Part shown: positions 25,399-51,351 of the stretch, piece by piece
Layout: the number at the start of each line of letters is the position of its first letter
Numbering within the stretch: the stretch's first letter is position 1
Assembly (NCBI GenBank): GCA_038065495.1
Contig: JBBTQW010000001.1
Span: forward strand, 110,137-164,824
Source: Patescibacteria group bacterium
GTDB taxonomy: Bacteria; Patescibacteriota; Minisyncoccia; Phycocordibacterales; JACOZG01
Direction: 5' to 3'
Length of the DNA stretch: 54,688 bases
Position numbers and translations under genes: made by a program
Notes under the pieces: model-generated
Database searches by the model: none
The model's input: the letters and a program-made list of their open reading frames with translations, nothing else
What the model was told of the DNA's origin: nothing

Positions 25399-25409
25399 TA
25401 CTTTGTCTG

Positions 25410-25789
25410 TGGAGATGGCGGGAATCGAACCCGCGTGCAAATGGTGTGACTCAAACGATCTACATACTTAGCTCACTTAATTTTCGACAGCGCAACTCGG
25501 AGTGAGCGAAACGTCGTGCTGGTTAGTGTCTAAGTTTTCGGGCTAATCGCGACACGAGATTAGCGCTAGCTCGCGGTTATAACACCTCTAGCCGCCCAGC
25601 AAGCGAGTGCGGTAGAGACGCCGAATTAAGCTAAAGCGAAACTCGGAGCGAAGGTGAAGTATGGGGATACCATATCACCTTGCTTAGCCATTTTGTTGGC
25701 AAGTGTGTTTTGTTGGTTGATTAGCGAGAGTCCAACGCTCTCGGTATGCCCGAGATGAGAATCGCCAAGTGTCTAGGCCGATCATCCCC
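25410..25789 (-). ncRNA. ssrA: tmRNA (SsrA)
   Basis: The 5' GGGGAUG pairs with the 3' CAUCUCC, giving the G3:U wobble. T-arm is GCGGGUUCGAUUCCCGC. An internal reading frame ends ...PYFTFAPSFALA-TAA; the likely tag is ANKMAKQGDMVSPYFTFAPSFALA or a shorter version starting at a later Ala. Immediately downstream of smpB. Confidence 0.9.
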
Positions 25790-39485: not shown

Positions 39486-39674
39486 TTATTTTTTAGCTTT
39501 ATTATTCTCAAGACTAGCCGCGGTTAGTAATCTCGCAATCTCGTGCCGTGCCTTGCCTACCACTTTTACATCTTTGCTCTTGCCTTGCCCGAGGTCAGCA
39601 AAATACAGCGCACGCAGAGCGTTTTTCTTCTCTACTACTGCCTTCTGCCAAGTTGTTCTTTCTGTTTTTGCCAT
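39486..39674 (-). CDS. rpmC: 50S ribosomal protein L29
   Basis: 62-aa helical basic ORF in the L16-L29-S17 position. Confidence 0.8.
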   Translation of the reverse strand: MAKTERTTWQKAVVEKKNALRALYFADLGQGKSKDVKVVGKARHEIARLLTAASLENNKAKK

Positions 39675-39689
39675 AAAATAAAATATAAA

Positions 39690-40112
39690 TTAAACGACTC
39701 GCGCGACTAGTTTAGTCTTGATCGGCAATTTAGCGCCGGCTTTTCTCAATGCTTCCCGAGCGACCATATTTTCCACGCCATCAAGCTCAAACAAAACGCG
39801 ACCAGGCCAAACTTGGAACTCGTAACCCTGCGGCTCGCCCTTACCCTTACCCATTTTCTTCTCCGCTGGATGCATAGTGTAAGGCTTATCGGGGAAGATC
39901 CGGATCCACATTTTGCCAGTTTTCTTGATCTCGTGCATGATCGCCTTGCGCGCCGCCTCAATCTGATTGGCCCGCACCCGGCCAGCCGACATTGCCTTGA
40001 TGCCATGCGAGCCGAAAGATAGCGTTACGCCACGCGTTTCCGTCTTTGCGCGCTTTGGATTACGGCGCATGGTGTGCCACTTTCGGTGTTTGACTTTCTT
40101 AGGGAGTAACAT
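39690..40112 (-). CDS. rplP: 50S ribosomal protein L16
   Basis: MLLPKKVKHRKWH N-terminus. Confidence 0.95.
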   Translation of the reverse strand: MLLPKKVKHRKWHTMRRNPKRAKTETRGVTLSFGSHGIKAMSAGRVRANQIEAARKAIMHEIKKTGKMWIRIFPDKPYTMHPAEKKMGKGKGEPQGYEFQVWPGRVLFELDGVENMVAREALRKAGAKLPIKTKLVARVV

Positions 40113-40118
40113 GATATT

Positions 40119-40790
40119 TTATTTACCTTGCTTATCCTTAGCAAAGATCTCGCCGCGGTAGATCCAGACCTTAACACCAATCACGCCATAAGACAAATAA
40201 GCCTTCTCCCGCGCAAAGTCGATATCCGCGCGCAGAGTTTGCAATGGCAAGCGACCTTTCTTGAGCGTTTCCGTCCGGCCAATTTCCGAGCCACCGAGCC
40301 GGCCAGAGAGCGTGACGCGCACGCCCTCCACGCTCCGGTTGCCCATCGCCTTCTCAATCGCTTGCTTGGCCACGCGCTTAAAGGGCATGCGCTTCTCCAA
40401 GCCCTCCGCAATCATCTGGCCCACAATCCGGGCATGCGTCTCGGGATTTTTTACTTCTTCAATGTCCAGCTTAAAATCTTTCGGCACCGTCGCCTTAATG
40501 CTATTTAAAAACTTAACCACTTCTTGCTTGAGCTTAGTTGAACCTTCACCGGAACGACCGATAATCATGCCCGGTCTGGCAGTTTTGATAGTCAATCTTA
40601 GTGAGTTATTACCGCGCTCAATCTCTAGCGCATCTACGTATAAACCACGCAGCTTTTTCTCAAGAAATTCGCGCAAGAGAACATCAGCTTTCAAGAATTT
40701 CTGATATTGTCCGCGCGTGCCAAACCAGCGCGACTGCCAATCACGGATAATGCCGAGCCGGTGAGAATATGGATGGACTTTGTGACTCAT
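40119..40790 (-). CDS. rpsC: 30S ribosomal protein S3
   Basis: MSHKVHPYSHRLGIIRDWQSRWF and a KH domain. Confidence 0.95.
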   Translation of the reverse strand: MSHKVHPYSHRLGIIRDWQSRWFGTRGQYQKFLKADVLLREFLEKKLRGLYVDALEIERGNNSLRLTIKTARPGMIIGRSGEGSTKLKQEVVKFLNSIKATVPKDFKLDIEEVKNPETHARIVGQMIAEGLEKRMPFKRVAKQAIEKAMGNRSVEGVRVTLSGRLGGSEIGRTETLKKGRLPLQTLRADIDFAREKAYLSYGVIGVKVWIYRGEIFAKDKQGK

Positions 40791-40800
40791 GGTGAATGGC

Positions 40801-41136
40801 TTAGAGCTTAGAGCTGTTAGCTGCTAGTTTGAGAATAACATGACTCGTGCGCTTGTTGATCCGAGAAGCCGAGCCGCGAGCGCGCGGTCGCGAGCGCTTG
40901 AGCGTGGCGCCGGCATCTACGCGCACTTCGCTCACTGTCAGCTTATCGCTCTCGCTGGCGGCCTGACCGGTATTGGCCACTGCTGATTCTAAGAGTTTAG
41001 AAATCGGCCCAGCCGCGCGCTTGGGCAAGAACTTTAACTGCTCGCGCGCATTAAGCACGCTCTTGCCTTTGATCAAGCTAGCAACCAAGCGCACTTTGCG
41101 CGGCGACTGACGATAATTACTCAAAACAGCTTTCAT
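40801..41136 (-). CDS. rplV: 50S ribosomal protein L22
   Basis: YRQSPRKVRLVASLIKGKSV. Confidence 0.9.
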   Translation of the reverse strand: MKAVLSNYRQSPRKVRLVASLIKGKSVLNAREQLKFLPKRAAGPISKLLESAVANTGQAASESDKLTVSEVRVDAGATLKRSRPRARGSASRINKRTSHVILKLAANSSKL

Positions 41137-41181
41137 CTTTATTTATTATTTATTTAAAATTATTCTTGCTTATTTTTACTT

Positions 41182-41523
41182 CTACTTTTTAGCAGCGACA
41201 GTCTCTTTGGCCGCCTTAGCGGCTGTTATCTCAGAATCTTTCTGCTTCTGTTCTAATTCTTTCTGAATTTTGCCGCCATGCTTCACAAACTTGCGCGTAA
41301 ACGAGAATTCGCCCAGCTTGTGGCCAACCATTTCTTCTGTCACAAAGACTTCGAGATGATCCTTGCCATTGTGCACGCCAAACTTGAAGCCGACCATCTC
41401 CGGGGCAATCGCGCTGGCGCGCGCCCAAGTTTTGATCACGCCAGTCTCGCCTGGCTTCTTGCCGGCAATCTTCTTGAGCAATTTGGGGTCAACATAGGGA
41501 CCCTTCTGGCTTGAGCGTGACAT
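41182..41523 (-). CDS. rpsS: 30S ribosomal protein S19 (with Lys-rich C-terminal extension)
   Basis: [19 protein letters not shown]...[23 protein letters not shown]. Confidence 0.9.
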
Positions 41524-41583
41524 AATTAGAAAAAATACTGCCCAGTTCAGGGCTTGAATATACTAGCAAATGAGCTAGTTCTG

Positions 41584-42561
41584 TCAAATACGCATTCTCT
41601 GGACCAACTTCCACCCATTCCCCCATCCCAACATCCCCAAATATGACTGTTTCCGCGCCTCATTCCCATTTTCTTGCAACTTGGCCAGCATCCTTTTTCT
41701 CGTCGCTTTGCGCAAAACACGATGATCCGGAAAGTGAACCCAGCCCAAGAAATCCACGCCAGAAGCGAGTGTTTTGATCGAAACTTTGTGCGGATGGAGC
41801 TGTAACTTGAGTTTGGTTTGGAGAAAAGTTGATATTTTTGGGATAAGTTTTGTTAGATATTCTTGATCTCGTGAGAAAATCACAAAATCGTCAGCATATC
41901 GCACATAATGTTTTATTCGCAATTCATGTTTAAGAAACTGATCAAGTTCGTTGAGATAAATATTCACTAAGAGTTGCGATGTGAGATTGCCGAGCGGCAA
42001 ACCCACGCCCAGTCTGGTTGAGTGAAAACTAGCAATAATCTCGCGCAGTAAGTTGAGAATATCTGGATCAGCAATGTGTTGAGCTAAAATATTTAATAAA
42101 ATCTGGTGATCAATGCTGGCGAAAAACTTCCGGATATCGCACTTGAGAATCCAGCACTGCTTAGTGTCATTTCGCGAAACTTGATAACCAAAAGCGCGAA
42201 ATCTGTTTAATGCTTTATGCGTGCCTTTGCCAATGCGACAAGAAAATGAGTCAGCGATAAATTTAGTGTGAAAATATGGGTATAACTTCCGGTAAATCGC
42301 GTGATGTAATACACGATCGCGCACACTCGCTTTGTGGATGTCGCGCGGTTTAGGATCGTTGATTTTGAAAGCTTTGTAAGCGCCGTGGCGATAAGCGTGA
42401 TTTTTGAGTTCGTGATTTAACTGAAACAGATTATCCATCAAGCCAAACTGAAACGCTTGCACATCTGGCTTGTGCCGTTTGCCACGGATAAATTCTTGCC
42501 AAGCTTGGAGCAAGTTCGCGGTGGAAATGATGTGAAAGAAATTGTATAGTAATTGAGTCAT
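41584..42561 (-). CDS. DGR-type reverse transcriptase
   Basis: 325 aa. RT motifs include YVRYADDFVIF (YxDD) and LPLGNLTSQLLVNIYLNELD; the [IL]GxxxSQ motif is typical of DGR RTs. There is no maturase or endonuclease extension. An SD-like CAGGAGA lies upstream. Confidence 0.9.
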   Translation of the reverse strand: MTQLLYNFFHIISTANLLQAWQEFIRGKRHKPDVQAFQFGLMDNLFQLNHELKNHAYRHGAYKAFKINDPKPRDIHKASVRDRVLHHAIYRKLYPYFHTKFIADSFSCRIGKGTHKALNRFRAFGYQVSRNDTKQCWILKCDIRKFFASIDHQILLNILAQHIADPDILNLLREIIASFHSTRLGVGLPLGNLTSQLLVNIYLNELDQFLKHELRIKHYVRYADDFVIFSRDQEYLTKLIPKISTFLQTKLKLQLHPHKVSIKTLASGVDFLGWVHFPDHRVLRKATRKRMLAKLQENGNEARKQSYLGMLGWGNGWKLVQRMRI

Positions 42562-42605
42562 GAATTTTAATTCTCCTGTAGTTACCCCCCCCCCGCAACA
42601 ATTTA

Positions 42606-42974
42606 TTGCCTTTGTTAGAACGCCTCAAAACGACTTATCTTGAGTGGTATAAATATTACCAAATCATTCCCAAAACTCATCGCCATTCGCTTGGCCAACG
42701 TATCGATAACTTATTTGTGGAAGTGATCGAGGGGACAGCAATCGCCGGCTTCTTGCCCAAAACCGAGAAACAGCCGTGGGTAAAACTGGCGATCAGAAAA
42801 TTAGATACACTCAAGATCTTGCTAATGATCCTGTGGGAAACTAAATCACTGGATAACAAAAAGTATCTGGCAATTTCAGCAAAGATTGATGAAGTGGGTA
42901 AAATGCTCGGCGGTTGGAATGGCCAACTACAGAGACAAAACTCTCCCGCCGAAGCAGGAGAGAAAATGAAGTGA
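42606..42974 (+). CDS. avd: DGR accessory variability determinant (Avd-like four-helix-bundle protein)
   Basis: 122 aa, helical and basic. The C-terminal IDEVGKMLGGW resembles the Avd / 23S-rRNA-IVS protein family (EVGRILGSW in Bordetella phage bAvd, recalled from memory). TTG start. On the opposite strand to RT, TR and target. Confidence 0.75.
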   Translation: MPLLERLKTTYLEWYKYYQIIPKTHRHSLGQRIDNLFVEVIEGTAIAGFLPKTEKQPWVKLAIRKLDTLKILLMILWETKSLDNKKYLAISAKIDEVGKMLGGWNGQLQRQNSPAEAGEKMK

Positions 42975-42977
42975 GTA

Positions 42978-43095
42978 GCGACGGAAGGCAAACCAGTCGT
43001 TCTGATCGTTGAAGTTGCTCACCCAGTTGAGGTTCGCCTTGCGGTTGGAATCGTTCCACCAGACATAGCAGGCCTGCTGGTTGCCCTCGAAGGTA
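42978..43095 (-). repeat. DGR template repeat (TR)
   Basis: 118 bp. The minus-strand sense reads FEGNQQACYVWWNDSNRKANLNWVSNFNDQNDWFAFRR with 8 AAC codons. All 15 differences from the VR are at A in this copy. Confidence 0.9.
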
Positions 43096-43342
43096 ATGTG
43101 CGAAATATCGTCCTAACCACCATCTCTCGATTGTTTAGAAACAACAAACTTGAGATTGAATCTAATTCGGCATCTTAATGCCTTAATATTTCACACCAAG
43201 TAACTTCATTTTTTGAAGTGTCTACATACACCGCGCTACCCGAGACCGTGATCGCGGATATTCTGGATGTATGGATACTGGCTTCGGTAGCCGGCAACCG
43301 TAATCACCAGCTTATGCACCTAGTGCCGAGCATATTTTAACA

Positions 43343-43376
43343 AAAGAAAAACCCCGAGCATAATTGCCCGGGGTTC
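43343..43376 (-). terminator. Rho-independent terminator of the DGR target gene
   Basis: Minus strand reads AACCCCGGGCAATTATGCTCGGGGTT followed by TTTCTTTTG. Confidence 0.6.
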
Positions 43377-43442
43377 CATTGTTAACGTTTTGGAATACGT
43401 TTGCGGGTTGAGGTCGCGCTAAGATCAAAGGATCTGAAAGAT

Positions 43443-44123
43443 CTAATGACCCGAGGCCACAGAGCTCTGGCGACGGAAGGCAAACCAGTCGTTCTGATCG
43501 TCGAAGCTGCCCACCCAGCGGAGGCGCGCCCCGCGGCTGGAACCGCGCCACCAGACATAGCAGGCCTGCCGGTCGCCCTCGAAGGTACATTCCTTAGTGG
43601 CGACCACATACATTGGGTTCATCCCGAGCTCTTGGTGCAGCTTGGGACAGCGAGCGCCAATAGCGAAAACCTGGCGAGGGTGGGTGCGTTCCAGTTGATA
43701 CTGCTTCGCCCAAGCTTGAGCCTTATCCCAATTGCCATCACCTTGGGGAAAGTTGAGCAGAATGAGCTCGTCTTCCCGAGTGCCAGTCCCCTCAGTCGGA
43801 TACTGATCACCGACCTTGCGGACATTGTAATTGGCCGGAGTATCGGGACCAGCGACATTGATTGCTTCTTGCCAGTCCTGGTCTAGAGTGACCGGTACTT
43901 GGACAATGTGTAACCGTGCGCCAGGAGGAGCAACCAGTTCGCCGAGAACCATTGGCCGTTTCGCCTTGATGCCATCCAGCATCTCGGCTACTAGGCCGCT
44001 GACCAGACCATAGGTCTGGAAGTCTTTGCGAGTGATTCCCTTGTCTTTGGCCATCTTGCGGATCTGATCCAGCTGGCCGGAACTCAAAGCTTCGTACTTC
44101 GGAGGTTTCGCTGTCTTCGTCAT
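43443..44123 (-). CDS. DGR target (variable) protein with no signal peptide
   Basis: 226 aa. The VR occupies codons for ...FEGDRQACYVWWRGSSRGARLRWVGSFDDQNDWFAFRR, 8 codons before the stop. An SD-like GGGAGAT lies upstream of the ATG. Confidence 0.85.
   Translation of the reverse strand: MTKTAKPPKYEALSSGQLDQIRKMAKDKGITRKDFQTYGLVSGLVAEMLDGIKAKRPMVLGELVAPPGARLHIVQVPVTLDQDWQEAINVAGPDTPANYNVRKVGDQYPTEGTGTREDELILLNFPQGDGNWDKAQAWAKQYQLERTHPRQVFAIGARCPKLHQELGMNPMYVVATKECTFEGDRQACYVWWRGSSRGARLRWVGSFDDQNDWFAFRRQSSVASGH
43470..43587 (-). repeat. DGR variable repeat (VR)
   Basis: 118 bp, collinear with the TR at an offset of 492 bp. It has 15 substitutions (to G or C on the coding strand), all opposite TR adenines. 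Confidence 0.9.
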
Positions 44124-44300
44124 CTGACTATCTCCCTATTTGGCTCATTACTGGCTCCGGATACACTCCGGGATCAGTAAGGGGCAATTAAATGTCAAAC
44201 ATCTACCAACCCCCACTATAGCAAACTGGCAGAAATTGTCAAGTGCCTTGCCGAAAATTATAACACACTGATTTATGCTGTAATGTAACCCCCCTCAATC

Positions 44301-44368
44301 CCCCTTATTTTAAGGGGGAAGCCAGCTCGCCCCCTCTCTTAGAGTAAGAGAGGGGTTGGGGTGAGTTA
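44301..44368 (+). repeat. Palindromic extragenic elements, copy B (two hairpins)
   Basis: ccccctt-atttt-aaggggg, then cccctctctt-agagt-aagagagggg-ttggggtgagtta. The second unit matches copy A at 17940-17979. Confidence 0.7.
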
Positions 44369-44386
44369 GAAGAAATTTTACAACCC

Positions 44387-45577
44387 CTACTCCTCCAGCG
44401 CTCCTTTTGTATATTTATTAGACGGCGACCACAGGAGCCAGCTCGTCAGACCCGCATCATATGTCGCCTGCATCTGTTTTTTAATCATCTCGGCCGTGTA
44501 GGGCGCCCCGAGGTCAAAGTCTTGCAACCACGGCCGGAGTTTGGCTTTATTCTGCCCCATGGCCACGGCGCGCTTGACCGCTTCGTCCATTGCGTACTTC
44601 ACCACCTCATACGGATAAGCGGCGGGATTTTTGTAACCAAGAAATGTTGCCGGATAATGTGACGGATAAACCATCGGCGCGATGTAATCAAAGTTTGCTA
44701 AACCATTTTCTAATAACTGGCCAATATTTAAGTCATCAAGATTAGAAGTCGTCATGCCAAAGAAGTCAGCCGAAATGGGAATCTTGCTGTCAGCTAATTT
44801 CTCACGCAAATACACAAAAAACTCGTTCATACTCGCCGCTTTTGTCAATTTAGTTTTCTCAAAGAACGGATAACTAATATCTTTCATGTTTCCATCAGAC
44901 GGAAAGCGAATGTAGTCAAAGTTTAGTTCATCAAAGCCGACGCGTTCTGATTCCCGTGCAATCGCCACAATATAATCCCAAGCTTCGCGCGAGGCCGGAT
45001 CCAGCCACTTGGCGCCTTTGTGGTCGGTCCAGACAGCGCCGTTTGAGGCTTTTTTTACCGCCAATTCTGGTTGCTTGGCGGTGAGAAAGGGATCTTGGAA
45101 AACGGCAATCCGGCCAATCACATAAATATTTTTCTCGTGTAATAAATTAATTAGTTCGTGAATATCCGGAATCCGCTTCTCGCTCGAGCCAAACTTTGCT
45201 AATTCTGGATCGGTGACGGCAAAAGAAATTTTGCCCGTGTAATCTTTGATGTCTATCACCACAGAATTTAATTCTGTTTCGTCTATCAATTTTATTAAAC
45301 TGTTGCGAAAGTCTTGCGTCCCGGCCACCCAGCTCGACATATAGATCCCCTTCACCGGCTCGGGCGTAGGCAAGTGTTTAGGCTTGGGCGGGGCGGGCGG
45401 CACAAGCGGCACGGCGCTACCGGGCTGGCCACCCTGCGCAAGCAAAGCTGGATCATAATAGTGCGCGCTGGGCCAGATGGCGAGCGAGGCCCACAGGCCG
45501 AGCGAGCCGACTAGTAAAATCGCGAGAGAAAGTAACAGATGCGAACGACGAAATTTAGAGCGAGGGCGAGATGTCAT
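44387..45577 (-). CDS. Putative TIM-barrel glycoside hydrolase-like protein (DUF4015/GHL-like), membrane-anchored
   Basis: Start trimmed to the ATG at 45577. N-terminal TM segment, then GIYMSSWVAG...LNSVVIDIKDYTGKISF...FDELNFDYIRFP pattern. Confidence 0.6.
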   Translation of the reverse strand: MTSRPRSKFRRSHLLLSLAILLVGSLGLWASLAIWPSAHYYDPALLAQGGQPGSAVPLVPPAPPKPKHLPTPEPVKGIYMSSWVAGTQDFRNSLIKLIDETELNSVVIDIKDYTGKISFAVTDPELAKFGSSEKRIPDIHELINLLHEKNIYVIGRIAVFQDPFLTAKQPELAVKKASNGAVWTDHKGAKWLDPASREAWDYIVAIARESERVGFDELNFDYIRFPSDGNMKDISYPFFEKTKLTKAASMNEFFVYLREKLADSKIPISADFFGMTTSNLDDLNIGQLLENGLANFDYIAPMVYPSHYPATFLGYKNPAAYPYEVVKYAMDEAVKRAVAMGQNKAKLRPWLQDFDLGAPYTAEMIKKQMQATYDAGLTSWLLWSPSNKYTKGALEE

Positions 45578-45752
45578 GATGATCTGATTCGTTAGCACCG
45601 CCCACGCGCGCAAGTGAGAAAAGCGCGATAAAGAAGCCAGCCGCAATCAAGAGTGGCTGCTTGAGACCTTCGGGCAAAGAAATGAGCGGTAAGATCATCA
45701 CCAGCAAACCCAGCGCAAAGTTGTTCCAATTTTTGTGAGTGCGGTTATGCAT
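45555..45752 (-). CDS. Small two-TM membrane protein
   Basis: 65-aa ORF with two hydrophobic helices. Overlaps the downstream gene's start by 23 nt. Confidence 0.35.
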   Translation of the reverse strand: MHNRTHKNWNNFALGLLVMILPLISLPEGLKQPLLIAAGFFIALFSLARVGGANESDHHDISPSL

Positions 45753-48172: not shown

Positions 48173-49553
48173 ATTTCAGTTTTTTCACTAACTGATCAAA
48201 CTGCGCACCGCGGTCGTACTCGTTTTTAAACATCCCAAACGACGCAAAAGCTGGCGAAAACAAGAGCGTGTCACCCTTCTCACAAAACTCTAAACTCACT
48301 TTCACTGCTTCAGCTAAACTTTTTACTAAAACTTTCTTCTCAATTTTATTTTTTATCTTTTCTGTACCTGAACCGGGTAATAAAATTATTTGTCTACAAA
48401 ATTTATCTAGATTTTTTATCAGCTCACTCATGTCCAGAGTTTTATCCGCGCCACCCAAAATCAGCACAAGCTTGTGCGGATTTTGTCCCGAGCGTAGTCG
48501 AGGGAAGCTCAACGCTTTTAGCGCCACCAGCGTGGCATCTGGAGTTGTCGCCGTGGTGTCATTATAAATTTTAATCCCCTGCCAAGTTCTCACCAATTCT
48601 AGCCTGCCCGCTACACCAGAAAAACTTTCTACTGCTTGCTTAATAATTTTTTCAGGAATTTCTAATTCCCGTGCCACCGCTACCGCCAGCGCGAAATTCT
48701 GGCGATTATGCTCGCCGGGCAATTTGAGCTTCCAACTTTTTGGCAGTTTTGGCACCTTGCCGCCCCAGAATAATTTATCACTCGATCTCTTATTCTGATA
48801 TTTAAAAATATTCGCCTTATCAGCAAAATATTTCTTCATACTTCCACCATAATAATTCAGGTGATCAGCCATGAAATTTGTAAAAACAGCAATATTGGGA
48901 CTAATCTTGAGATCACCGAAACCTTGCAGCTGCCACGAGTCCAGTTCCAGCACTACTAAATCATCTTTTCTAATTTTCTCCAGCAAAGGCAAAGTCGTTA
49001 AGCCTTGGATGTTTCCGCCAAGATGTACTTTCTTCTCACCGAAATATTCTCGCAAAATCTCGTGAATTAATTTCGTCGTAGTCGTCTTGCCGCGCGTGCC
49101 AGTGATGCCAATAATTTTCACGCCCATTTCTTGCGCAAATTTGGCAAACAGCGCCGTACTCATCCGGACAGGAATTTTATTCTTTTTTGCTTCAGTAATA
49201 AACGGCGAAACAAGAGGCACGCCAGCGGCTTTGATAATCAAATCTCGATTCCGGAAATCTTCTAATCTGTGTCCACCCAGAACAAATTTAATATTTTTAT
49301 ACTTTCGGAGCTTTGCAAGCGACGGCCTGAGCGCAGTCGAAGGCTTCAAATCCGTCACGACTAATTCACTTGCACATTTCGCCAAGAATTGCGCATCGCC
49401 AACTCCCCGCCCGAGTAGGCCCAGGCCCATCAGGGTGATCTTTTTGCCAGAGAAAAATTGTTGATAATTGAGAATAAGAGTAAATAGAAACTTAGAAAAT
49501 CCTCCCAAACAACCCAGCAATCCACCGACCAAATTTACCAAACACATTAGCAT
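48171..49553 (-). CDS. murD: UDP-N-acetylmuramoylalanine--D-glutamate ligase
   Basis: GKKITLMGLGLLGRG N-terminus and the GTRGKTTTT P-loop. The start is uncertain: Met at 49553 or 49547 overlaps the upstream gene's end, and the 5' part of the track ORF looks non-coding. Confidence 0.8.
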   Translation of the reverse strand: MLMCLVNLVGGLLGCLGGFSKFLFTLILNYQQFFSGKKITLMGLGLLGRGVGDAQFLAKCASELVVTDLKPSTALRPSLAKLRKYKNIKFVLGGHRLEDFRNRDLIIKAAGVPLVSPFITEAKKNKIPVRMSTALFAKFAQEMGVKIIGITGTRGKTTTTKLIHEILREYFGEKKVHLGGNIQGLTTLPLLEKIRKDDLVVLELDSWQLQGFGDLKISPNIAVFTNFMADHLNYYGGSMKKYFADKANIFKYQNKRSSDKLFWGGKVPKLPKSWKLKLPGEHNRQNFALAVAVARELEIPEKIIKQAVESFSGVAGRLELVRTWQGIKIYNDTTATTPDATLVALKALSFPRLRSGQNPHKLVLILGGADKTLDMSELIKNLDKFCRQIILLPGSGTEKIKNKIEKKVLVKSLAEAVKVSLEFCEKGDTLLFSPAFASFGMFKNEYDRGAQFDQLVKKLK

Positions 49554-51351
49554 TATCGCCCGCCGGTGTCGTTGTGGCCACCGAACTGGTTGGCGCACCG
49601 AGTTCAGCATCAGCATTTGTGTCGGTAGCCAGTGTATTTACGCCCAAAACCTGACCGGTCGGCGCGATATTTTGCGCTGTTTGCCGTTGCTTGATACTTT
49701 CCAAGAGCGCCAAGAGTTGTGCGCGCTCGGCGTCGGAGAGATTGGGCTCGCCACCAGTTGGCAGGATCACGCTCTGACTACCGCCGCTGGAGCCGCCACT
49801 TGAGCTATTATTTTCGCCAGAACTTGGCGCTGGATCTTCGGCCGGCGGAGTCGTGGTTGCCGTACTGGTCGCAATCGCGCTAAAAGTTACAGCGATAGTG
49901 TGATCTGCAGTGACACTCAAGAAAGTGTAAGTGCTAGTCGCCGTGCTCGTGGCGCTGTCTATCAATAATTCACTTAGTTCAAAGCCAGGATCTGGCGTGA
50001 AGGTGAAGACTTGATCAGCGCCAGCAGCCACGCTCACGGCACCACTTGGGTCAATCACGCCGCCCGCGCTTGAGGTCGCTGTGATCGTGTGGGTCGTGGG
50101 TGGTACAGGATCGGCCACAAAGTTCGCTGTCACGTTTTTGTCGCTATCTAAAGTAACAGAAGTTGGATTAGCGGAACCAGAGAGATCGCCGCTCCAACCA
50201 GAAAAAGTGTAACCAGCATTTGGCGTCGCCATGAGCTCAACCATTGTATCGTGATCGTAACTGGCTTGATCGGGATTTTTAGTCACAGCGCCATTATCGG
50301 CTGTGATATTTAACACATGAGTAACCGGTGCGAAAGTGGCAGAAATACTATGATTGGCCGTGACGGCCGCGAAGTTGTAACTCGCGACAGCACCGACCGA
50401 AACACTATCAACCAAAACATCAGCGATTTGGAAGTTAGCGTCCGGCGTGATGGCGAAAGCTTGATCAGTATTCTCCGTCACATTTATCATGCCAAGTGGC
50501 GAGATCGAACCGCCCGTGCCAGCGCTGGCAGAAATTGTGTAAGAACCAGGAACCACGACATCAGCCGCAAAATTAGCCGTGACAGAAATGTCGCTCACCA
50601 CGTTCAGATCAGTTCTGGGATTATTAGTTAAGCCATCACTCCAATCTACAAAGTGATAACCAGCATCAGCCACAGCCGTGACCGCCGTGCCGTCTTCACC
50701 TTCATTTACCATTTGTACTACTTGCGGCAAATTGGAATCCAGAGATCCGTTAGCGCCAGCTGTGTAAGTGAGAGTGTGTTGAACCGGAGCTGGAAGATGA
50801 TAATCCACACTTAACTTCACAAAATCGTGTCTAGTTTTAACGCTCCCACCGATGGCGGTTGTTTTAAAGGCTAAAAATCGAGCCTTGAGATTATTTACTT
50901 TTGTTGCCGTATTGATCTGGGAACTAAGATCGATCTCCTGCAAAGAATCCGTGCTGTTGTTTGCTGGATTCGTTAGTGCGTAGTCAGTAAAACTTGCACC
51001 ATCCCAAATCGACAATTTTCTTCCGTCTAACGCCGAATCACGACGAAACTCATGAGTGATTTTTACACTATCAATGATAGCGTCACTGGGGATATTTGGT
51101 TGGAAGAGAAACTCTAGATACTTGTTTGCATCAAACGACGCCACGCCATTGGGCCAATTTGACGCAGTAACATAGTGGACATCATCGCTAGTATTTAATT
51201 TAGTAAAATCGCTGGCAGAAAAAGCCACTGAACTAGTCGCCGTATTATCAGTTCCCGAAACTACAAAATAATCAGCTGTTGCTCCCTCTGCTCTCATTCC
51301 TAATCCGCACAACAAGATCAGCATTGCTAACAAAAGTTTTCGGTAAGTCAT
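49492..51351 (-). CDS. Secreted cell-surface protein with InlB B-repeat-like (bacterial repeat) domains
   Basis: Signal peptide MTYRKLLLAMLILLCGLGMRAEG. Repeated ~80-aa units carry GYHFVDWSDG / GYTFSGWSGD signatures. There is a Ser/Gly/Thr-rich linker and a hydrophobic C-terminus. Confidence 0.7.
   Translation of the reverse strand: MTYRKLLLAMLILLCGLGMRAEGATADYFVVSGTDNTATSSVAFSASDFTKLNTSDDVHYVTASNWPNGVASFDANKYLEFLFQPNIPSDAIIDSVKITHEFRRDSALDGRKLSIWDGASFTDYALTNPANNSTDSLQEIDLSSQINTATKVNNLKARFLAFKTTAIGGSVKTRHDFVKLSVDYHLPAPVQHTLTYTAGANGSLDSNLPQVVQMVNEGEDGTAVTAVADAGYHFVDWSDGLTNNPRTDLNVVSDISVTANFAADVVVPGSYTISASAGTGGSISPLGMINVTENTDQAFAITPDANFQIADVLVDSVSVGAVASYNFAAVTANHSISATFAPVTHVLNITADNGAVTKNPDQASYDHDTMVELMATPNAGYTFSGWSGDLSGSANPTSVTLDSDKNVTANFVADPVPPTTHTITATSSAGGVIDPSGAVSVAAGADQVFTFTPDPGFELSELLIDSATSTATSTYTFLSVTADHTIAVTFSAIATSTATTTPPAEDPAPSSGENNSSSGGSSGGSQSVILPTGGEPNLSDAERAQLLALLESIKQRQTAQNIAPTGQVLGVNTLATDTNADAELGAPTSSVATTTPAGDNANVFGKFGRWIAGLFGRIF

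Follow-up and report, generated by a model that had tools for sequence, protein, structure and literature searches.

The window analysed here is a 54,688-nt stretch of the genome of a Patescibacteria group bacterium (GCA_038065495.1, contig JBBTQW010000001.1), and all coordinates refer to it. Three open reading frames (ORFs) make up the locus, with the positions and lengths that an earlier note on this DNA had given: a reverse transcriptase (RT) of 325 aa on the minus strand (41584..42561), an accessory variability determinant (avd) of 122 aa with a TTG start on the plus strand (42606..42974) and a target, or variable protein, gene of 226 aa on the minus strand (43443..44123). The target gene is preceded by a predicted sigma-70-like promoter (TTGACA-16-TATAGT, with TG; 44215..44242, minus strand; 11/12 matches in a consensus scan) and followed by an intrinsic-terminator-like hairpin with a U-run (43348..43377, minus strand; a 13-pair stem, then TCTTTTGTT). 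Its 3' part, codons 179-218, is the variable repeat (VR; 43470..43587, minus strand), the only VR copy within the window. The template repeat (TR; 42978..43095, minus strand) is found outside the gene and near the RT, 374 nt downstream of the VR and with 416 nt between it and the RT start.

From these two 118-bp repeats, said to differ at 15 positions and solely at adenines of the TR minus strand, the earlier note had recognized a diversity-generating retroelement (DGR). Ungapped realignment of TR and VR, 118 nt each, gave the same numbers, with 15 mismatches of which 15/15 fall on minus-strand TR adenines (P = 1.0e-11, hypergeometric, the TR having 28 A in 118 nt). The substitutions in the window VR are 12 A>G, 3 A>C and 0 A>T. 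The peptide encoded by the TR, (T)FEGNQQACYVWWNDSNRKANLNWVSNFNDQNDWFAFRR, and its reading frame are also as first noted, and so is the list of codon changes: the TR holds 8 AAC codons, 7 of which are altered in the VR, plus four other codons that change.

The RT had been assigned to DGRs on account of its LGNLTSQ and YADD motifs. It matches Pfam RVT_1 (4.6e-25), and its closest solved relative is bRT (E 7.7e-42, residues 11-309 aligned, that is near full length), the RT of the Bordetella phage BPP-1 DGR, which has the order mtd-avd-TR-brt and whose RT-Avd-RNA complex is PDB 8ub7 (Handa et al. 2024, bioRxiv 10.1101/2023.10.23.563531). In this alignment LGNLTSQ corresponds to IGSLTSQ and YADD to YMDD, and the query is nearer to bRT than to group II intron RTs, which reach about 1e-22. 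Using the RT as query we collected related loci; at least 575 RT relatives have 54-68% identity, and nearly all the record titles naming a lineage name Patescibacteria/CPR. It is exceedingly improbable that the RT belongs to a group II intron or a retron, or is a defence RT, with the repeat pair as a coincidental partial duplication. Nine NCBIfam models match the RT, not one of them a DGR RT model, and the best is group_II_RT_mat; but its score, 151 bits, is far under its 300-bit cutoff, and the RT likewise scores far under the cutoffs of the models for group II, retron and Drt RTs. The SQ-type motif of the RT, the adjoining Avd, the TR/VR mismatches on adenines alone and the lead of bRT, by 20 orders of magnitude, as best solved relative all speak against such an identity, and an Rfam search of 41000-45000 returned neither group II intron nor retron RNA (no match at E<=1 to intron ribozyme domains or msr/msd RNA beside the RT).

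Turnover of the VR, which the earlier note had suggested looking for, was seen directly by comparison with an independent assembly of the same strain, the Logan assembly of run ERR3858121. The 1.4-kb flank and the 3.6 kb containing TR, avd and RT are 100% identical in both assemblies, and the differences between them are restricted to the VR, where 14 sites differ, 14/14 of them opposite TR adenines. The ERR3858121 VR differs from the TR at 16 positions, again 16/16 at TR adenines. Since the VR changed only opposite TR adenines while flanks, TR, avd and RT stayed identical, the DGR is recently active. Very little speaks for an inactive relic, in which the TR/VR differences would be old and the gene no longer diversified by the DGR. 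Two VR alleles only have been seen, and the VR/downstream junction, sought in JGI metagenome contigs, had 0 matches there and so yielded no further alleles, but every ORF is intact, and about 5 kb are 100% identical between assemblies that differ in those 14 VR sites; ordinary divergence would not be confined to sites opposite TR adenines, which makes a relic very unlikely.

The second VR (locus L001) also bears on the last 30 nt of the repeat, which had been described as identical in both copies and as an IMH-like region. The identity within the window stands, but the protection of this segment does not, because four adenines there are mutated in the second VR, whose substitutions include TR adenines 87, 90, 93, 95 and 96. 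The part invariant in both VRs is reduced to the final 22 nt (positions 97-118), a GC-rich segment that has one adenine and reads the same in the TR. Reading the sequence by eye, we saw no Bordetella-type GC-rich hairpin after the VR; directly 3' of it there is only a 10-bp palindrome, CAGAGCTCTG. Across 52 loci the substitutions are 546 A>G, 197 A>T and 151 A>C, a general bias towards G. A special spectrum without A>T had been considered (0/15 in the window, 0/16 in the second allele) and was dropped, as A>T occurs among the 52 loci.

Avd matches Pfam PF22296 bAvd with 2e-12 and 48 bits, above the 40-bit gathering cutoff, and NCBIfam DivGenRetAVD with an E of 5e-18 and 65 bits, under that model's cutoff of 80; a PDB sequence search gave no match. 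An Avd-like protein of 122 aa between RT and TR had been proposed and passes the Pfam test, but its location on the plus strand, inverted with respect to TR and RT, had gone unnoticed. The inversion is present in 75/75 relatives with an Avd match, and over about 50 loci the avd stop adjoins the TR and the VR lies a median of 341 nt upstream. The order TR (43095-42978, minus), avd (42606-42974, plus), RT (42561-41584, minus) is that of the B3 architecture, TR-(avd)-RT with avd in reverse orientation, described for DGRs of Patescibacteria/CPR (Wu et al. 2018, PMC5758913). The Patescibacteria DGR lineage is RT clade 2 (Roux et al. 2021, PMC8144416), and the taxonomy of its relatives assigns the locus to this clade. 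With the CPR DGRs of type B3 and clade 2 it shares gene order and inverted avd, chromosomal location, and a small target with a C-terminal VR and no transmembrane or known domain, and no feature sets it apart from them. The element, a complete one, is of an ordinary kind for the ultra-small CPR/Patescibacteria bacteria, its layout being already published as B3. We put at roughly 0.9 the probability that the locus is a chromosomal, recently active DGR of the Patescibacteria-specific lineage, with clade 2 RT and architecture B3; the repeats, the RT and Avd support the DGR reading of the earlier note, and no check that was run refuted it. Thousands of DGRs have been catalogued, and CPR bacteria are rich in them. 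We know of no DGR of the CPR lineage that has been studied biochemically, and the value of this locus is to offer a clean, demonstrably active example.

The target protein has no match in Pfam or NCBIfam, a PDB sequence search with it returned only noise, and by inspection of its sequence it lacks an evident signal peptide. Its 107 homologs are about 210 aa long and hypervariable at the C-terminus only, and those with taxon names are Patescibacteria in 5/5 cases. In the AF2 model (pLDDT 92.9) the VR falls on a beta-hairpin and loop, and it includes a conserved Trp. Foldseek gave no match reaching E 0.001 in PDB and BFVD; the best matches, weak ones (E of at least 0.03, TM 0.44-0.54), are lectin-like domains, and viral predicted structures gave nothing meaningful. 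The weak likenesses comprise the C-type lectins rhodocetin and BDCA2 (TM 0.44-0.47) and the Bd2740 fibre tip domain (TM 0.52). The target is like the variable proteins of C-type lectin fold (Mtd, TvpA, archaeal, Thermus) in its C-terminal VR, in where the AF2 model puts this VR and in the conserved Trp, but differs from them in having no FGE-sulfatase or DUF1566 match in Pfam. Lectin-type Pfam families, these two included, were absent from the target and from 42 other targets of the clade, and the sole Pfam matches over these 43 proteins were AAA ATPase domains in a few long members. A C-type lectin fold of the modelled target could not be shown. The target family, of about 210 aa, has neither a known domain nor an export signal.

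The region 5' of the TR was compared among about 70 relatives of the locus. An extended -10 promoter-like element, TGnTAAAAT (43334..43343, minus strand), is conserved in their alignment, the consensus tTtg.TAtAaT being kept at the same place, and from it we infer that transcription of the DGR RNA starts near 43327. The RNA would then begin with a conserved structured 5' leader of about 230 nt (43096..43329, minus strand), identified with RNAalifold and a profile HMM. Its helices, all on the minus strand, are H1 (43309-43302/43299-43292), H2 (43272-43266/43232-43226), H3-H4 (43260-43250/43247-43237), H5 (43196-43185/43109-43098), H6 (43181-43178/43173-43170) and H7 (43156-43152/43126-43122). 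H5 ends 1-5 nt before the TR in most loci, and 2 nt before it in the window. Over 42 loci, RNAalifold shows compensatory changes in 39 of the 45 pairs of the leader; 94% of the cells are paired, against 37-55% with slid partners, and the covariation score is 0.837, against at most 0.23 in the controls, a value reached by 0/500 shuffles. The helices were also recovered by a single-sequence fold (z = -3.1). The profile HMM has one match in the window and finds 64/66 relatives with enough upstream DNA, while the leader has no match to an Rfam family and no relevant match among the published RT-1 to RT-19 motifs.

One strand of the leader, P (AAAAUGAAGU; 43203..43212, minus strand), pairs with a site 6 nt 3' of the TR, T (ACUUCAUUUU; 42963..42972, minus strand), which overlaps, on the opposite strand, the stop codon of avd. 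The P:T duplex has 10 bp in the window, where it also comes out of an independent prediction, the MFE fold of the 395-nt RNA, and compensatory variants of it occur among loci. When P and T come from the same locus they pair over 6.55 bp, as compared with 5.20±0.19 bp for cross-locus combinations, a difference matched by 0/10000 permutations. After T come a 9-bp stem with a UUCG tetraloop and then UUUUG (42941..42962, minus strand), 16 nt after the TR and antisense to the last avd codons. A hairpin of at least 8 bp within 60 nt 3' of the TR is present at 34/52 loci, against 6.4 (maximum 13) in shuffles; the stems covary across loci, and a T-run comes next. This hairpin resembles a terminator, an Avd-binding stem-loop or both, the second by analogy with the Bordetella RNA, where an Avd-binding stem-loop is located just 3' of the TR (Handa et al. 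2024). It was also considered as the terminator of avd, and this was rejected because it is within the avd coding sequence. As for the composition of P:T, the duplex is A/U-rich, and neighbouring registers pair moderately well (up to 77-84%, versus 85%).

Conservation, covariation and the analogy with the Bordetella phage DGR suggest a model of the RNA and of its use. The template would have a transcript of its own, about 390 nt long, from the extended -10 promoter (about 43327) to the hairpin and U-run (about 42937), and in three parts: the structured leader of about 230 nt, the TR of 118 nt and a short tail at the 3' end. H5, with 12 bp, would close 2 nt before the TR and be followed by a short hairpin and the conserved adenosines GAAUAA; it probably acts as the Bordetella 'cPRT Stop', ending cDNA synthesis. 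The P strand, six nt upstream of H5, would pair with the 10 nt just 3' of the TR, a proposed analogue of the Bordetella primer strand, and P:T probably acts as the primer:template duplex that starts cDNA synthesis. As this duplex is 6 nt past the end of the TR/VR homology, the first cDNA bases would mismatch the VR flank. The 9-bp UUCG hairpin beside P:T is probably where Avd binds and may double as a transcription terminator. With the H5 and P:T duplexes adjacent, the TR would be looped out between them, as in Bordetella. The bridging RNA would thus be 5' of the TR, not 3' as in Bordetella, an arrangement that would fit the inverted avd. The RT-Avd complex would copy the TR, misincorporating opposite adenines, and the cDNA would replace the VR, thereby recoding about 14 codons for the target's C-terminal surface; the target may be a small, probably cytoplasmic, binding protein.

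The BPP-1 DGR and the present one are alike in the RT motifs IGxxxSQ and YxDD and in having Avd, in the adenine-specific transfer from TR to VR and in the AAC-rich TR codons. At the level of the predicted RNA, they are alike in a stem-loop (about 9-11 bp, UNCG tetraloop) that follows closely on the TR, in a duplex at the 5' edge of the TR beside a duplex at its 3' edge, and in a short hairpin with adenosines after the stop duplex. They differ in several respects: avd is here on the opposite strand and downstream of the TR, the RNA seems to stop some 40 nt past the TR, substitutions are biased towards G, a cell rather than a phage is the host, and the target is not recognisably Mtd-like. A further difference in the RNA concerns the strand forming both duplexes, which in BPP-1 is in the 140-nt spacer downstream of the TR, whereas here it would be about 100 nt upstream, in the 230-nt leader. 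Both strands that have their Bordetella counterparts 3' of the TR, for primer and stop, are located 5' of it (P at 43212-43203, the 5' arm of H5 at 43196-43185), so that the two-duplex topology appears to be kept with a different connectivity.

The leader could instead be a cis-regulatory element, riboswitch-like, or an independent small RNA controlling TR transcription, with priming from sequences antisense to avd, in the manner of the downstream spacer of Bordetella. Part of the clade has an alternative local hairpin, ACUUC...GAAGU, which competes with P:T and would suit a switch. Moreover, the putative upstream/downstream duplexes proposed for many DGRs, with 40 nt upstream and 100 nt downstream examined, use just these short segments (Handa et al. 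2024, 10.1101/2023.10.23.563531). We consider this explanation improbable, however, given that H5 closes within 1-5 nt of the TR in most loci, that the P strand pairs directly 3' of the TR and with covariation, and that the order of P strand, stop-duplex strand, short hairpin and adenosines is the order of Bordetella Sp47-81. In most loci, furthermore, the T site is followed by the terminator-like hairpin and U-run, and little downstream RNA would be left.

A leader that takes part in cDNA priming and arrest would explain how a DGR with an inverted avd can still build a Bordetella-like ribonucleoprotein, and the comparative analysis turns it into a testable RNA model with transcript ends, primer:template duplex, stop helix and Avd-type hairpin. 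If confirmed, the model would mean that the DGR RNA scaffold tolerates rearrangement, which would be useful for engineering DGR mutagenesis tools. The leader RNA, the P:T pairing and a poly-G run discussed below are clade-wide, and we found no description of them in the papers of Wu et al. (2018) and Roux et al. (2021) or in Rfam. The broader proposition, that B3-type DGRs have both a rearranged scaffold RNA with a 5' leader and a G7-G12 run that may be phase-variable, neither of which turned up in Rfam or the DGR papers searched, seems to us evenly balanced.

The poly-G run is a G10 homopolymer on the minus strand between the divergent avd and RT starts (42585..42594), read as C10 on the avd strand, where it lies 11 nt before the avd start. 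A run of G7-G12, with a mode of 10, recurs at the same place between avd and RT in 68/75 loci; these being independent assemblies, the suspicion of an assembly artefact was rejected. The run may be a slippage-prone contingency tract switching the expression of RT and/or avd, so that the DGR would be phase-variable and hypermutation would gain a possible on/off layer. The recurrence of the tract, its range of lengths from 7 to 12 and its position between two divergent starts are in favour of this idea, and an AT-rich -10-like hexamer, recognized by eye, often follows it on the RT strand. We regard the switch as possible and, on the whole, rather doubtful, since both assemblies of the strain have G10 with no length difference and a clear -35 element was not found. 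On the avd strand, moreover, the run occupies the position expected of a ribosome-binding site, so it could instead act in the RNA, for instance by affecting translation, by serving as a Rho site or through base pairing between the two 5' UTRs.

The earlier note had read this region as a diversity-generating retroelement (DGR) in which the template repeat (TR) and the variable repeat (VR) differ only at adenines, and both the observation and the main interpretation hold. Realignment of the TR (43095→42978, minus strand) with the VR (43587→43470, minus strand; codons 179-218 of the 226-aa ORF 43443-44123) extended over 118 nt without gaps and gave 15 mismatches, all of them at an adenine of the TR. 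Since the TR contains 28 A among its 118 nt, the probability that every mismatch falls on A by chance is about 1e-11. The peptide encoded by the TR, its eight AAC codons (seven changed) and four other codon changes were also recovered as listed in that note, and no additional VR-like copy was present in the window. The changes from TR to VR are 12 A>G and 3 A>C, while A>T is absent both here and in a second VR allele of the same strain. A special spectrum lacking A>T was ruled out for the window VR, as this change was counted 197 times in 52 loci of the clade (A>G 546, A>C 151, non-A 46). The adenine substitutions of the clade are biased towards G, a preference that could come either from the enzyme or from selection on the proteins.

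The reverse transcriptase (RT; 41584-42561, minus strand, 325 aa) matches Pfam RVT_1 at 4.6e-25, and its best match among solved structures is by far the DGR RT of the Bordetella phage RT-Avd-RNA complex 8ub7 (E 7.7e-42, residues 11-309), with LGNLTSQ aligned to IGSLTSQ and YADD to YMDD. Group II intron RTs come next, at only ~1e-22, supporting the DGR-type assignment previously made from the two motifs. The NCBIfam models matching the RT include no DGR RT model and every match is far under its cutoff. The Avd-like protein proposed between RT and TR is likewise supported: avd, the accessory variability determinant gene (42606-42974, 122 aa), scores above the Pfam bAvd threshold, and against NCBIfam DivGenRetAVD it reaches E 5e-18, under the cutoff of that model. 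It is the sole component on the plus strand, RT, TR, VR and target gene all being on the minus strand.

Evidence of activity came from the Logan assembly of run ERR3858121, which encodes a protein sharing 96% identity with the target. A contig of 1439 bp is the same as window positions 43252-44690 but for 14 bases, and all 14 lie within the VR and opposite TR adenines; this second allele differs from the TR at 16 positions, again all adenines. Another contig of the run matches 39606-43223 exactly, covering TR, avd, the G-run and RT. Therefore the TR is invariant and the VR turns over, the behavior expected from a working DGR. Of the 28 TR adenines, 21 are altered in at least one of the two VRs; those at positions 2, 9, 15, 21, 30, 80 and 99 are unaltered in both. 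The last 30 nt of the repeat had been considered an IMH-like region; they are not a protected zone, because positions 87-96 are mutable and constancy across both VRs is limited to the last 22 nt.

At least 575 relatives of the RT, at 54-68% identity, exist in the genome collection, and nearly all record titles naming a lineage are Patescibacteria (CPR). All 75 of the relatives for which an Avd was matched carry avd inverted and diverging from the RT, and an adenine-specific TR/VR pair in the same layout as in the window was found in about 50 loci, with the TR on the RT strand, its end within a few nt of the avd stop codon, and the VR at a median of 341 nt upstream. This is architecture B3, TR-(avd)-RT, found in 90% of CPR DGRs (Wu et al. 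2018, PMC5758913), and by lineage the element corresponds to clade 2, restricted to Patescibacteria, of Roux et al. 2021 (PMC8144416). Layout and lineage thus place it in a known kind, the CPR-type DGRs, of which it is an ordinary member, if a nicely active one.

The target carries the VR in its C-terminal part. It has no match in Pfam, NCBIfam or PDB sequences, and a reading of the sequence revealed no hydrophobic N-terminus. Its 107 homologs (~210 aa; the five named by taxon are all Patescibacteria) are conserved along the whole length except for the C-terminal VR stretch. The AlphaFold model, a confident one (pLDDT 92.9), predicts three N-terminal helices followed by an α/β domain, with the VR on the last β-hairpin and loop of this domain. 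Foldseek found no match at E ≤0.001 and nothing among viral models; its highest-ranking matches, at TM 0.44-0.54, were to the tip domain of a Bdellovibrio fibre and to C-type lectins. No lectin-type Pfam family was matched by any of 43 targets of the clade. A C-type-lectin-like fold is possible. CPR DGR targets are usually without recognisable domains (Roux et al. 2021, PMC8144416).

What may be new, at the level of the clade, is a structured leader 5' of the TR with a rearranged Bordetella-like topology, together with a poly-G run. About 235 nt ahead of the TR are strongly conserved, starting with an extended -10-like TGnTAtAaT right behind the putative target-gene terminator. RNAalifold on 42 loci predicted 45 pairs in seven helices, 39 of them with compensatory changes; 94% of the cells pair, whereas sliding the partners by 1-3 columns lowers this to 37-55%; the covariation score of 0.837 compares with 0.23 at most, and none of 500 shuffles reaches the observed value. 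Folded by itself, the window leader recovers these helices (z = -3.1). A profile HMM built from the leader alignment has one match in the window (43329-43088) and matches 64 of the 66 relatives with enough upstream DNA; beyond the window, 68 of 70 matches are 300-900 nt upstream of an RT, on its strand. No Rfam family matches the leader.

Helix H5 (43196-43185 with 43109-43098, minus strand, 12 bp) ends 2 nt before the TR. Six nt upstream of it, the P strand (43212-43203, minus strand, AAAAUGAAGU) is complementary to the 10-nt T site (42972-42963, minus strand, ACUUCAUUUU), which begins 6 nt after the TR. Compensatory variants in relatives include AAUGAAUA/UAUUCAUU, AAAGAAAAUA/UGUUUUCUUU, CAUGAAGA/UCUUCAUG and …GC/GC…; the Watson-Crick duplex averages 6.55 bp within loci against 5.20±0.19 bp across loci (0/10000 permutations), and the pairing also appears, without comparative input, in the predicted MFE structure of the complete 395-nt RNA. 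A local hairpin, ACUUC-AAAAAAU-GAAGU (43203-43220), conserved in part of the clade only, can sequester the P strand in competition with the T site and could be a conformational switch.

The T site abuts a second hairpin (42962-42941, minus strand), 16 nt after the TR, with a 9-bp stem, a UUCG tetraloop and then UUUUG. Hairpins of at least 8 bp occur within 60 nt 3' of the TR in 34 of 52 loci, against 6.4 for dinucleotide shuffles (maximum 13) and 9 and 6 for two control windows. Across loci the CUCC…GGAG ends are kept, inner pairs covary and a T-run is nearly always next; in most loci the last codons of avd lie opposite the hairpin, in antisense. The hairpin resembles an intrinsic terminator and also fits the "Avd-binding stem-loop", typically 9 bp and tetraloop-capped, reported just downstream of the TR in 207 of 278 DGRs (Handa et al. 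2024, 10.1101/2023.10.23.563531).

In the Bordetella RNP, Sp47-56 serves as primer strand and is paired to the TR in its 3' part; two nt on, Sp59-70 pairs just 5' of the TR (the "cPRT Stop"), and a short hairpin and A-minor adenosines come next. The TR is looped out between the two duplexes, with the Avd-binding hairpin after it (Handa et al. 2024, 10.1101/2023.10.23.563531). This succession recurs in the CPR RNA (P strand, H5 strand, short hairpin H6, conserved GAAUAA), which also has a looped-out TR with a hairpin after it, but whose bridging strand is 5' of the TR rather than 3'. Because of this parallel, the P:T duplex would position the start of cDNA synthesis, H5 would stop it, and the final hairpin would bind Avd and/or end the transcript. 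No description of the rearranged arrangement was found in the DGR literature searched; Handa et al. 2024 (10.1101/2023.10.23.563531) covered 40 nt upstream and 100 nt downstream of the TR.

A G10 run (42594-42585, minus strand) is found in the gap between the starts of avd and RT, which diverge. As a run of G7-G12 (mode 10) occupies the same position in 68 of 75 related loci, it is a conserved element. It lies a median of 19 nt ahead of the RT start and, as a C-run on the avd strand, ~5-12 nt ahead of the avd start, where one would expect a ribosome-binding site. One reading is an RNA-level role in two overlapping 5' UTRs; another is a slippage-prone expression switch, against which both assemblies of the strain have G10, with no length variation. 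Assembly error is ruled out by the recurrence. A literature search on both topics found no link between DGRs and homopolymeric tracts.

The DGR lies on a bacterial chromosome. At one end it borders DUF4015 and murC, at the other rpsS, which starts a ribosomal-protein cluster. The genes for S10, L3, L4, L23 and L2 usually precede that for S19; here they are absent upstream of rpsS, replaced by DUF4015, murC and other cell-wall genes. rpsS (S19; 41182-41523) is directly downstream of the DGR, which lies within 41584-45646, and a promoter-like TTGACA-16-TAGTAT sits at the RT stop (41587-41560). Some CPR DGR cassettes contain ribosomal protein genes (Wu et al. 2018, PMC5758913). In L002 (JAHFLR010000060.1), which has the closest RT relative (68% identity), a DUF4015 gene lies upstream of the DGR as well, and the 230-aa target there has no detectable similarity to that of the window, which points to an exchange of targets at a genomic site that is itself conserved.

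Two tandem G+C-rich hairpins (44290-44355; CCCCTCTCTTACTCTAAGAGAGGGG and CCCCCTTAAAATAAGGGGG), probably terminators, separate the DUF4015 gene from the promoter of the target gene; one of them matches Rfam DUF805b weakly and below threshold (E 0.016). A tmRNA gene (25409-25789, tag ANKMAKQGDMVSPYFTFAPSFALA) and seven tRNA genes in the window belong to the housekeeping set usual in small bacterial genomes. A possible surface protein, 619 aa long and carrying divergent InlB B-repeat (Flg_new_2) domains, is encoded at 49492-51351, some 5 kb away from the DGR.
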